Shown here in pieces: positions 8,305 through 15,108 of a stretch of DNA of 64,000 nt (position 1 is its first letter; the number at the start of each line of letters is the position of its first letter). This DNA is from Acholeplasmataceae bacterium (GTDB taxonomy: Bacteria > Bacillota_I > Bacilli_A > Acholeplasmatales > Acholeplasmataceae). Made by a program: the position numbers and the translations under genes. The stretch covers positions 224,001 through 288,000 of the forward strand of contig OY775910.1 of NCBI GenBank assembly GCA_963675245.1. Direction: 5' to 3'. The notes beneath the pieces are model-generated. The model was not told the origin of the DNA. It saw only the letters and a program-made list of their open reading frames with translations, and ran no database searches.

Positions 8305-9999
8305 TTATTGAGCTGGTGTTAGATTCAACGTATTTTCCAAGAAATTAAAGTAGTGTTCTAAAATACCATAACTACCAATCTTAAATCCATTAATGGCATT
8401 GGTAATACCATCTAAGAATGGAATGGATGTAAAGAAATCAAGCGCGCCATATAGGGCTAACAAGACAATAGCAACTACCAAAAATGGTAGTACAATCTTT
8501 AACAATAAAACCTTTAAGAACTTAAGAATAAATAATCCAGTTTTCTTAAGTGCTTTGATTTCACCAGGTGTATCATCTTCAACGCCTTCTTCTTCAAGCT
8601 TTTGTTTTTCAACAAATGCTTCACGTTCTTTGATTTCACTCTTCATGATTTTTCCGAAGTTCTTTGAAGTGCCTGCAAACTCAGCGGTGTTAACGACGAT
8701 TGGTTCACCTTTTTCTGGATAAACCTCATATGAAGGTTCTTCAGGTTCAACCACATCTTCTTGTACTGGTTGATCTATAATAGGTTTGTTAATTTTTGCC
8801 TTTTCAACTGGTGGTTCTTCCTTAACAGATTCAGGTTTCTTTGAAAGTTCTGCAATCGTTTCTCTTAACGCTTTTACTTCAGCTACCAAAGCATCTAGAT
8901 TCACATTTTGTTGAATGACTTGAACAGGTTCTTTTTCGATAACTTTGTCTGGAACTGTTTTAATTTCTTCTTCAACTTTTGGTTCTTCTTCAACGATTTG
9001 TACAGGTTCTTCTTTAATTGGTTCTTCATCAGCTTCAGAAGCTATTTCTGGTTCAGGAGCAACTGGCTCTTCCTCTTTAACAGGCTCAGGTTCTGGAATA
9101 GGTGCAGGTTCTTCTTCAATTTCATCTGAAATCTCTTCAATTTCCTGATCGTATGCAGCAATTGAACTTGGTACAAAATAAGCTTCTCTTGTTTCTTTTG
9201 CGTTCTTTAAAATATATTCAATAATTTCTTCTTTTTTAAGTTCAGTGGATGCTTTGATGTCATGATCAATAGCAAACCTTTGTAAAACTAAAACGGACAT
9301 CGAATTAATTTGATTTTCAAGTGCTTGTGTATATTCACCTCTATCTTTTAATTCTTTGATAATAATGTCAGCGAGTTCATTTTTCTTTAATCGTCTTGGT
9401 ACTTTTACACCATATTTAGTCCCAAGATCACGCACTTCTGATAAGGTGGAACTCTTATATAAAACTGGTCTAATCTTTTGTGGAGACAAACCATCAATAC
9501 GATTAAACGAATCATAAAAGAGCACACTCAATGTACGATTATATGTTTTAATATCAGGAAGAACTAACCCTTTGTCTTTAGCATAAGCGACACTTTGATC
9601 AATGAGTTTTTTGATGTCATTTGGTGGTACTTGCTTATCAGACATATATCCTAATAAGTCTGTCCAAAAACTATTTAAGAAATCTCTTATTAATTGCTCA
9701 TCATCAAAAAACACGAGTAAATTCTCAAGTTGTGTTTCACTGAATTCAGCAAACCACGATAACCGATAATTAAGCTCATCAGCAAGCGTACCTCTTGATT
9801 TTCTTGTTTCTGCGACACGTTGTCTTAACGTTTCTTTTAAAACATAGATACGAAGCTCACGAGGTATGGTTAATCCGATTTTTTGAAAGAAACTAACGAC
9901 TTGTTCTGCAGGCAAGTACGGTAATGTCTTTATAAGTTCTTCAATTGTAATCTCTTTGGTGCCAACCTTAATTACGCTATCCTTACTTAATTTTGGCAT
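8305..9999 (-). CDS. hypothetical membrane-anchored protein with repeated Rho-N/HeH-like motifs and an acidic Pro/Glu-rich linker
   Basis: 564-aa ORF with a GGAGGG RBS. It has motifs resembling Rho_N, an E/P-rich low-complexity middle, and a C-terminal hydrophobic helix (IVLPFLVVAIVLLALYGAL). Confidence 0.6.
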   Translation of the reverse strand: MPKLSKDSVIKVGTKEITIEELIKTLPYLPAEQVVSFFQKIGLTIPRELRIYVLKETLRQRVAETRKSRGTLADELNYRLSWFAEFSETQLENLLVFFDDEQLIRDFLNSFWTDLLGYMSDKQVPPNDIKKLIDQSVAYAKDKGLVLPDIKTYNRTLSVLFYDSFNRIDGLSPQKIRPVLYKSSTLSEVRDLGTKYGVKVPRRLKKNELADIIIKELKDRGEYTQALENQINSMSVLVLQRFAIDHDIKASTELKKEEIIEYILKNAKETREAYFVPSSIAAYDQEIEEISDEIEEEPAPIPEPEPVKEEEPVAPEPEIASEADEEPIKEEPVQIVEEEPKVEEEIKTVPDKVIEKEPVQVIQQNVNLDALVAEVKALRETIAELSKKPESVKEEPPVEKAKINKPIIDQPVQEDVVEPEEPSYEVYPEKGEPIVVNTAEFAGTSKNFGKIMKSEIKEREAFVEKQKLEEEGVEDDTPGEIKALKKTGLFILKFLKVLLLKIVLPFLVVAIVLLALYGALDFFTSIPFLDGITNAINGFKIGSYGILEHYFNFLENTLNLTPAQ

Positions 10000-10028
10000 A
10001 CGATCCCTCCATTGCTCTCTTTATCTCT

Positions 10029-10057
10029 ATATTACATTTTTTTTAAAAAATGTGCAA
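10029..10057 (-). promoter_or_regulatory. sigma70-type promoter for hypothetical-mutS-mutL-miaA cluster
   Basis: TTGCAC (10057-10052), 17-nt spacer, TAATAT (10034-10029) on the minus strand. Confidence 0.55.
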
Positions 10058-10103
10058 GTTAAAAACGTTAGAGAGCCCTTATATAAGGCGATTTCCCATT
10101 TTA

Positions 10104-12694: not shown

Positions 12695-12716
12695 AAAAAG
12701 AGGCAGATGCCTCTTA
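12695..12716 (-). terminator. intrinsic terminator after rny
   Basis: AAGAGGCA/TGCCTCTT hairpin plus T-tract. Confidence 0.65.
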
Positions 12717-14487: not shown

Positions 14488-15108
14488 ATGAATAAAAACA
14501 AAAAAGAGAAACTTACTTTTTTTAAATGGCTACATAAATATCGTGCTAAAATCGGCTTATTAGCATTTGTCATAGCAATCCCATTGGCTTTAATATTAAT
14601 TACTTATTTAGGCCCATATGTCAGTAATCAAAATGTCCACTTTGATGAAGAAAAAACAGATGTCCAAAGGCGTTTTCAAGCGATTGATGATCTTGATGAA
14701 TTATCATTAACCATTGTTTGGAAAGAGCTTATTGAACCAAGATATGATGGTAATGATCCAGCTGAAATAATCGTACCAGGATCATTTAGATTTGACATTA
14801 GTTATGAAGCAAAAGGTGCTTATAATGTTAGTTCTGTCGCTGTGACACCTGTCTTACATCCTGATTGGTTCTCATATTACTCAATTGGTACTAAGAAGAC
14901 GGTAACAACATCTCCAAGTAACATGACCGTCGTTTGGAATGAAGATTTACCATTGCATAAATTATTATTTGTCACCGTTAATGAACCAAACCTCTACTTA
15001 AAAGTTGAATATAGTTATATCACAGCAGATCAAACAATCAATAAAACTGCTTATGTGATGTACTCGTTAGCAGGTATCAATCCTGAAACAGTTACATCAT
15101 TTTCATAA
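14488..15108 (+). CDS. hypothetical single-pass membrane protein
   Basis: AAGGAG RBS, basic N-terminus, one TM helix (aa ~22-41), beta-rich C-terminal domain. Confidence 0.7.
   Translation: MNKNKKEKLTFFKWLHKYRAKIGLLAFVIAIPLALILITYLGPYVSNQNVHFDEEKTDVQRRFQAIDDLDELSLTIVWKELIEPRYDGNDPAEIIVPGSFRFDISYEAKGAYNVSSVAVTPVLHPDWFSYYSIGTKKTVTTSPSNMTVVWNEDLPLHKLLFVTVNEPNLYLKVEYSYITADQTINKTAYVMYSLAGINPETVTSFS

Follow-up and report, generated by a model that had tools for sequence, protein, structure and literature searches.

A conserved gene between ricA and mutS

The window studied here is a 64,000-nt stretch of DNA from an Acholeplasmataceae bacterium (assembly GCA_963675245.1, contig OY775910.1, positions 224,001 to 288,000). 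According to the list of open reading frames (ORFs) and its translation, positions 8305-9999 of the reverse strand form an ORF of 564 amino acids (aa) and a stop codon. A GGAGG ribosome-binding site lies 6 nt 5' of its ATG, and the gene is present in a single copy in the 1.63-Mb host genome. The N-terminal head of the protein bears helix-extension-helix (HeH) motifs and is followed by a disordered, acidic stalk with a short conserved helix, then by a single transmembrane (TM) helix near the C-terminus and a 44-aa tail (Table 1). On the same strand the gene is preceded by recA, rny, ymdB, miaB, and ricA (Com_YlbF, E 3.6e-16), in this order, and followed by mutS and mutL. The product, an integral membrane protein of a bacterium, combines HeH repeats in a new composite head; it represents an unnamed, conserved family and is a candidate tether between nucleic acid and the membrane.

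A search of a 5.8-billion-protein collection at E ≤ 1e-3 returned 322 homologues, whose sources are Acholeplasmataceae, Mariniplasma, Peloplasma, and metagenome-assembled genomes labelled "Tenericutes". Where a name is given, it is "hypothetical" or "Rho termination factor N-terminal domain-containing", and a literature search found no paper describing the family. When aa 1-280 were compared with 1.84 billion cluster representatives, 282 clusters were matched at E ≤ 1e-3, one distant cluster being annotated as Izemoplasmataceae / Liberiplasma; for 144 of the 150 relatives listed, the match began at residue 30 or earlier. Family proteins range from ~300 to 2550 aa in length, and the large ones (1075-2550 aa) contain no informative Pfam domains. 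Two alignments were used below: A1, of 24 close homologues, and A2, of 30 diverse members with 26-66% identity. The 30 diverse members all retain the head, a spacer that varies, and a hydrophobic helix at the C-terminus, so that the membrane-anchored layout of head, linker, and TM helix proposed in the initial annotation of this DNA is conserved down to 26-35% identity. A conserved N-terminal head followed by a spacer, a basic juxtamembrane helix, and a TM helix is the layout of a tether, in which a binding module is held away from the membrane.

Some genomes (three of genus g14, G137, G145, and G153, as well as G045 and G263) contain two to three head-domain paralogues away from the mutS locus. 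These paralogues (P0183, P0179, P0214, P0207, P0208, P0249) include giant forms of 1341-2550 aa, and in some of them a TM helix after the head is followed by 856-1404 residues that belong to no known family.

Table 1. Features of the 564-aa protein gene (X) and of the intergenic region upstream, in window coordinates. AF2, AlphaFold2; pLDDT, predicted local distance difference test; pTM, predicted template modelling score; H, helix.
Feature	Position	Strand	Description
Whole ORF	8305..9999	-	564 aa + stop; founding example of the family (P0001); 322 homologues at E ≤ 1e-3
All-helical head domain	9142..9999	-	aa 1-286; most invariant A1 columns; AF2 pLDDT 91.8, pTM 0.84; no clear fold match
HeH0, weaker third HeH-like repeat	9796..9921	-	aa 27-68; AF2 H31-41, short loop, H47-68; no Pfam match of its own
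HeH1, Rho_N match	9334..9456	-	aa 182-222; best Pfam stretch; AF2 H186-195 / extension / H206-220
HeH2, second Rho_N-like stretch	9196..9306	-	aa 232-268; AF2 H236-245 / extension / H256-266
Glu/Pro-rich acidic disordered stalk	8905..9141	-	aa 287-365; net charge -23, 13 Pro; sequence and length variable in homologues
Short conserved amphipathic helix inside the stalk	8830..8904	-	aa 366-390; AF2 helix 369-386, low confidence
N-x-A-E-F-x-G motif, then charged helix; conserved	8566..8697	-	aa 435-478; AF2 helix 445-470
K-rich amphipathic juxtamembrane helix running into the single TM helix	8431..8565	-	aa 479-523; AF2 helix 479-523
Conserved acidic C-terminal tail, predicted outside	8308..8430	-	aa 524-564; two short helices, 527-536 and 546-558
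ricA-X intergenic region	10000..10103	-	hairpin + T-run, -35, 17-nt spacer, -10, GGAGG

Three HeH repeats in an all-helical head

The Pfam Rho_N profile (PF07498) matched the protein with an E-value of 1.3e-8 and 35.1 bits (gathering cut-off 24.9), over two stretches of which aa 182-222 was the better. The same two stretches (window 9334-9456 and 9196-9306) were recovered in a six-frame search of the genome, where HeH1 scored 24.7 bits, or 25.1 counting neighbours in frame, and HeH2 alone scored 20.9 bits, which is under the cut-off. Rho_N was also matched by 19/30 diverse relatives at E ≤ 0.01. The initial annotation had described two clear tandem motifs of the HeH/Rho_N type and a weaker third. 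The two tandem motifs were found at the nucleotide positions given for them, at aa 184-217 and 234-267, and all three could be related to one another by profile-profile comparison. In hhalign comparisons on the 30 diverse relatives, HeH1 and HeH2 aligned in register with a probability of 95.4% (E 1.8e-8), HeH0 and HeH1 with 68% (E 4.7e-5), and HeH0 and HeH2 with 22% (E about 1e-3), while in the control all three repeats gave less than 1% against the middle of the head domain.

The AF2 model of the head, calculated from A2, is all-helical and of high predicted confidence, and each of the three repeats forms a helix-loop-helix in it (Table 1), as the HeH assignment had suggested. The loops span residues 196-205 in HeH1 and 246-255 in HeH2 and are shorter in HeH0 (42-46), which is separated from the other two repeats by a helical insert of ~100 aa. 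Basic residues occur at the start of the second helix of each repeat: R47/R50, R202/R203/K205/K206, and K255/K256 are invariant in A1, and A2 keeps K195, R50, and K256 in all or nearly all members.

The whole head had no clear relative among known structures. Foldseek, which the initial annotation had proposed, gave a best E of 0.37 against the Protein Data Bank (PDB), and a search of BFVD (viral structures) a best E of 0.17. VIA-align comparison with 48,161 chains gave matches that were all local and helical, the best being to Tex (Z 6.1, 44 residues). In the ESM Atlas the best score, 0.79, was to small SAP and Rho_N clusters and lies under the meaningful level. At the sequence level, the single protein had no match in the PDB, and the A2 profile had insignificant PDB matches only, the best of which (E 0.046, to VAMP2) came from the TM region. 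One weak match was found in PHROGs (E 3.4e-4). The window protein matched no Pfam domain besides Rho_N, and thus no Pfam family over aa 1-170. For the SAP domain (PF02037) it gave no match at E ≤ 1, and relative P0208 reached 13.9 bits (cut-off 23.9). A two-copy complex prediction of the head from A2 scored 0.00; it was run without controls and weighs neither way. As modelled, the head is a confidently folded domain of ~285 aa with no clear match in the searched libraries, a statement that covers the head as a whole and not aa 1-170 alone.

The closest named likeness is to the N-terminal part of transcription termination factor Rho. It consists of the above-threshold motif, the helix-extension-helix arrangement, and a weak structural alignment, in which the Rho N-terminal bundle (1a62) was superimposed on the 175-275 range of the model with Z 4.8 and a root-mean-square deviation of 2.7 Å over 48 residues (27% identity). 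In NCBIfam, aa ~229-277 showed a faint likeness to the first ~50 residues of Rho (TIGR00767), at 13.2 bits where the cut-off is 509.45. Unlike Rho, the window protein contains neither the OB-fold RNA-binding domain nor the ATPase; its motif is present in three copies, embedded in a new and larger domain, it is membrane-anchored, and its host genome contains no Rho factor over the curated cut-off. The best Rho-profile matches of that genome, at 42 and 28 bits, are ATPase-like frames of ~500 aa, which we take to be F1-ATPase subunits.

The only other Rho_N matches in the host genome are the C-terminal tails of two ribosomal proteins, each of which follows an Ala/Pro/Lys-rich linker: a bL20-like protein (212 aa; L089 ORF 1495-2133; tail at G000:C1:1518829-1518939(-), 37.5 bits) and a uS2-like protein (334 aa; L090 ORF 595-1599; tail at G000:C1:1062443-1062529(+), 34.7 bits). 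Rho_N matches occur in 155/191 genomes of the order, often in frames of ~190-240 or 320-460 aa, and the identity of the host as a ribosomal protein was confirmed in the host genome only. Co-variation of the ribosomal tails with the gene was considered and rejected, since Rho_N is also found where the gene is missing (genus g10, 21/21; g24, 8/8; g26, 5/5).

The stalk, the TM segment, and membrane orientation

The long acidic, Glu/Pro-rich linker and the C-terminal TM helix of the initial annotation were both recovered (Table 1). The full-length AF2 model has a pLDDT of 59.9, falling below 50 across aa 268-368, and its stalk motifs are not docked onto the head. The spacer as a whole is acidic in 24/24 aligned homologues (net charge -12 to -37) and, at 178-222 residues, variable in sequence. 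Among relatives at large the distance between head and TM helix varies from about 50 to more than 2000 residues, and the spacer consists of ~50 residues, of ~200 acidic disordered residues, of several Ig-like repeats, or of more than 2000 residues. Two islands of conservation interrupt the stalk in A1. In the short stalk helix, E374 and L378 are invariant, and L371, V372, and R379 nearly so; this segment, a conserved helix (aa 369-386), had been annotated as a short coiled coil and is at most a putative one. In the second (aa 435-478), N437, A439, E440, F441, G443, K446, K453, E455, and E460 are invariant. The protein has a single hydrophobic segment, aa 497-515 (Kyte-Doolittle hydropathy peak 3.03), located within the predicted juxtamembrane helix. 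The 20 residues before it contain five K/R and those after it none, and aa 521-564 carry a net charge of -3. A related tail motif recurs in distant family members.

Orientation was assessed from hydropathy and the positive-inside rule, using 257 members of the family that are at least 300 aa long. A C-terminal TM helix (the best hydrophobic segment lying ≤80 residues from the C-terminus) was observed in 231/257, an internal one in 6/257, and none in 20/257, which may be fragments. K/R are more numerous in the 20 residues preceding the TM helix than in the 20 following it in 226/231 members of the first group and 6/6 of the second (232/237 together), with up to 10 before and 0-3 after. No hydrophobic N-terminal segment was present in the window protein or in the 20 relatives scanned. 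Since the K/R-rich flank precedes the TM helix, the positive-inside rule predicts that the head is cytoplasmic and the protein tail-anchored. In the class of tail-anchored proteins, a single TM helix lies ≤~50 residues from the C-terminus next to a basic juxtamembrane region; the N-terminus has no hydrophobic segment, and the short tail that is translocated is acidic. The class is defined by topology; it is not a family and says nothing about function. The position of the TM helix and the absence of an N-terminal hydrophobic segment fit it, while the orientation rests on prediction, and three relatives have surface-type repeats on the side of the head.

These relatives, P0134 (five Big_3 repeats), P0201 (eight Flg_new), and P0200 (five Flg_new), carry the repeats between the head and the C-terminal TM helix and have no other hydrophobic segment. 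Big_3 and Flg_new repeats are usually extracellular or found on cell surfaces. We read them as a replacement stalk on the cytoplasmic side, an unusual and unproven reading, and for this reason we kept as a rival a surface protein whose head is displayed outside on a stalk and held by the C-terminal TM helix, in the manner of a head-stalk-anchor adhesin. Pro/Glu-rich stalks of highly variable length are also typical of surface proteins. Against such a protein, the head begins at residue 1 with no hydrophobic segment ahead of it, and the charge distribution around the TM helix is the opposite of that in type I anchors; in the Big_3/Flg_new relatives, too, the flanks preceding the TM helix are very basic (6-10 K/R). 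Moreover, in the six internal-TM members the TM helix directly follows the head and a further 84-1404 residues lie beyond it, and the canonical Rho_N modules of the same genome sit on ribosomal proteins. We consider an outside-facing head unlikely.

Distribution of the gene and of wall-synthesis proteins

In the order Acholeplasmatales, 157/201 genomes match aa 1-280. The family is near-universal in Acholeplasmataceae outside the phytoplasma-like genus, and also occurs in Izemoplasmataceae, in other allied lineages, and in very small genomes. The host genome is 99.96% complete, and profile searches found no SEDS, penicillin-binding protein transpeptidase, or MurG in it, which supports the earlier assumption of a wall-less host.

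The initial annotation had asked whether the gene is restricted to wall-less lineages. The phyletic profile was determined in 399 scored genomes, all of the same class, with SEDS (PF01098) as the marker of wall synthesis; these genomes are related rather than independent, and the counts are given without a statistic. The taxonomy seems to place the host lineage in a single-class phylum, the "phylum" sample containing "same class" genomes only. A match at E ≤ 1e-3 was present in 107/399 genomes, and in 98 of them it was strong (E ≤ 1e-10). In four families without SEDS the gene is nearly always found: f1 (gene 29/30, SEDS 0/30), f4 (7/7, 0/7), f19 (22/23, 0/23), and f22 (22/22, 0/22). Families with SEDS in every genome have next to no matches: f8 (gene 0/38, SEDS 38/38), f11 (2/49, both weak, and 49/49), f18 (0/10, 10/10), and f25 (0/10, 10/10). 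Among families with small genomes, f16, f24, and f20 have neither the gene (0/22, 0/21, and 0/3) nor SEDS (0/22, 0/21, and 0/3), and f12 has the gene in 1/40 and SEDS in 1/40. A strong match and SEDS occur together in 8/98 genomes (G019, G029, G032, G035, G231, G269, G519, and G457). SEDS-negative lineages are therefore enriched in the gene, which is neither limited to them, because of these eight genomes, nor universal among them, because most SEDS-negative families with small genomes are without it.

The host genome encodes FtsZ, and no FtsA was found in it over the cut-off. ZipA consists of a globular domain, a long flexible linker, and a single TM helix, a layout resembled here in inverted order. 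The window protein could on these grounds be an inverted-ZipA-like tether that links FtsZ or another filament to the membrane via its flexible linker. Yet SepF, a known membrane anchor of FtsZ, is encoded ~2 kb from ftsZ, and the head showed no likeness to known FtsZ-binding domains in Pfam searches or fold comparison. Such a role appears very improbable to us.

Transcription and the link to mutS-mutL

Gene order was compared in 65 related loci, which were found via conserved A1 peptides and are biased to close relatives. Upstream, miaB and/or ricA were present in 61/65, the other four having ≤1.6 kb of upstream sequence; downstream, mutS was present in 61/65, the other four reaching the contig end soon after the gene. 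In 20 loci from distant families (20-35% identity) the gene followed miaB, with or without ricA, in 12 and preceded mutS in 12, the remaining loci being paralogues or having both neighbours missing. In B. subtilis, according to the initial annotation, the slot between ymcA and mutS holds cotE; a literature search found no paper on this point.

The ricA-X gap of ~105 nt, aligned over the window and 28 loci, contains a GC hairpin with a T-run after ricA, TTG and TA..AT blocks 17 nt apart, and GGAGG. The putative promoter in the window has TTGCAC at -35, a 17-nt spacer, and TAATAT at -10, and the -35 element of relatives reads TTGATA or TTGTAA; the hairpin is weak in this window, and the promoter was missed by a generic promoter scan. 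The stop codon of the gene and the start of mutS are 21 nt apart, with no hairpin between them. The arrangement suggests that transcription ends after ricA and restarts for X-mutS-mutL. From the conserved terminator-promoter upstream and the hairpin-free gap to mutS, the gene is probably the first of a transcription unit that includes mutS-mutL, in line with its earlier description as the head of the mutS-mutL cluster.

A probable shared transcription unit, and a mutS gene that comes next in the 65 related loci wherever the contig extends far enough, could point to an accessory mismatch-repair protein that localises or regulates MutS/MutL, and a scaffold for MutSL was indeed among the roles first suggested. 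A different pattern is observed across genera. In g11 (genomes of 0.6-0.8 Mb) the gene is present in 11/11 genomes, still after miaB, and mutS-mutL are gone (mutS 0/11). Conversely, mutS is present in 8/8 genomes of g24 and 5/5 of g26, where the gene is found in 0/8 and 0/5. Both are absent from g10 (0.5-0.9 Mb; gene 0/23, mutS 0/23). Because g11 has the gene without mutS, while g24 and g26 have mutS without the gene, the gene and mismatch repair are separable both ways, which argues strongly against a dedicated MutSL role; the suggested scaffold is contradicted, and an accessory function in repair is strongly disfavoured.

The neighbours on the other side bear on a further possibility, namely a protein scaffold whose head recruits a cytoplasmic partner (e.g., RNase Y or the Ric complex, ribosomes, or RNA polymerase) to the membrane with no nucleic-acid binding of its own. 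In favour of a scaffold, the gene stays beside rny-ymdB-miaB(-ricA) even at 20-35% identity. On the other hand, the gene has no co-varying partner: loci of f22, f28, and g11 keep it with no ricA detected next to it, and mutS is absent from g11. For the Ric scaffold of the initial annotation, the link to RicA is weak, given these lineages. Furthermore, g26 genomes without the gene keep the order rny-ymdB-miaB-mutS-mutL (L098, L099), so that the adjacency to RNA-metabolism genes is largely inherited.

A putative membrane tether of the HeH type

Modules of the HeH type, namely Rho_N, SAP, LEM-like, and yeast HEH modules, are best known for binding nucleic acid or chromatin. Because of this, of the tether layout, and of the basic residues at the second-helix starts, we put first, tentatively and by analogy, a nucleic-acid-to-membrane tether, whose ligand would be DNA or RNA, as the best explanation of the data. 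The retention of the gene in the 0.6-0.8 Mb genomes of g11 was counted in its favour. RNA is kept as a candidate ligand because the neighbours rny, ymdB, miaB, and ricA function in RNA metabolism. The tether would be a tail-anchored protein of an unnamed family of Acholeplasmatales and Izemoplasmatales-type Mollicutes, with the ~285-aa helical head directed toward the cytoplasm. Its three HeH (Rho_N-like) repeats would catch nucleic acid, be it RNA or the DNA of the nucleoid, or a partner bound to nucleic acid, and keep it near the membrane. The stalk, ~200 residues long, acidic, Pro/Glu-rich, and disordered, may hold the head off the negatively charged membrane and set its reach, and a Lys-rich amphipathic helix would lead into the single C-terminal TM helix, leaving a short acidic tail outside.

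Several observations weigh against a nucleic-acid tether, the surface-type repeats of the three relatives described above among them. The head is not basic: its net charge is +1 in the window protein and -10 to +1 across 24 homologues, and a near-neutral or negative surface fits protein binding at least as well as it fits non-specific DNA binding. The head is also conserved the way protein interfaces are. Given the weak fold match to Rho and the lack of a structural relative of the entire head, no function can be transferred to it. Finally, an HeH fold can also have a protein as its ligand, as in the binding of BAF by the LEM domain (PMC3337167). The near-neutral to negative charge, the long invariant stretches typical of a fixed protein interface, and the LEM-BAF precedent are all points for the protein scaffold introduced above, which, with its lack of a co-varying partner and its largely inherited neighbours taken into account, we regard as possible, ranking it after the tether.

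The nearest analogues of the proposed tether are eukaryotic HeH/LEM proteins (Heh1/Heh2, Lem2, Man1, LAP2, emerin). The HEH domain of S. pombe Lem2 and Man1, which reside in the inner nuclear membrane, ties chromatin to the membrane (PMC3337167). Like these proteins, the window protein combines an N-terminal HeH module with a long disordered linker and a membrane anchor. It differs from them in having no match to Pfam HeH (PF12949) or LEM at E ≤ 1, one C-terminal TM helix instead of two, no MSC domain, three repeats within a 285-aa domain, and a host that is a bacterium. On Pfam HeH, 19.9 and 16.7 bits are the scores of relatives P0201 and P0144 (cut-off 28.9). The initial annotation had equated the combination of HeH, linker, and TM helix with the architecture of LEM chromatin tethers. 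The likeness in layout stands, and the features of membership fail: because it has a single TM helix, no Pfam HeH or LEM match, and no MSC domain, the protein would be an analogue of LEM/HeH nuclear-membrane tethers and not a member of the group. The outcome proposed here, the joining of nucleic acid to the membrane, would be the same as that of bacterial nucleoid-membrane linkers such as the ParB-like protein Noc. The folds are unrelated, and Noc is peripheral, binding via an amphipathic helix, and CTP-regulated, whereas the window protein is integral and has no detected nucleotide-binding motif.

Nucleoid organisation and segregation, as well as RNA metabolism at the membrane, are poorly understood in wall-less bacteria. 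If the protein does tether nucleic acid, it would be, as far as literature searches show, the first integral-membrane HeH tether described in bacteria, and a clear case of convergence with the LEM/HeH proteins of the nuclear envelope. A broader and rather doubtful proposal is that it is an ancient, convergent bacterial counterpart of the eukaryotic HeH/LEM chromatin tethers, in which the three-HeH head would pin the nucleoid or nascent RNA to the membrane in Mollicutes-type bacteria. Its role would then be important enough to outlast reduction to 0.7-Mb genomes, and the head would have been reused as a cytoplasmic anchor on paralogues with very large extracellular regions. Even if the ligand is a protein, the head would still be a confidently folded ~285-aa domain that has no match in the searched libraries, with no Pfam family for aa 1-170.

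Other features of the window

Three further features were observed around rny. A terminator-like hairpin (7 bp, 4 GC; window 12698-12715, both strands) directly follows the rny stop codon and precedes ymdB. The best promoter-like site of the region, with 11/12 matches, lies upstream of rny at 14383-14354(-). Between rny and recA, on the opposite strand, an ORF at 14488-15108(+) codes for 206 aa with an N-terminal hydrophobic segment and no Pfam family.

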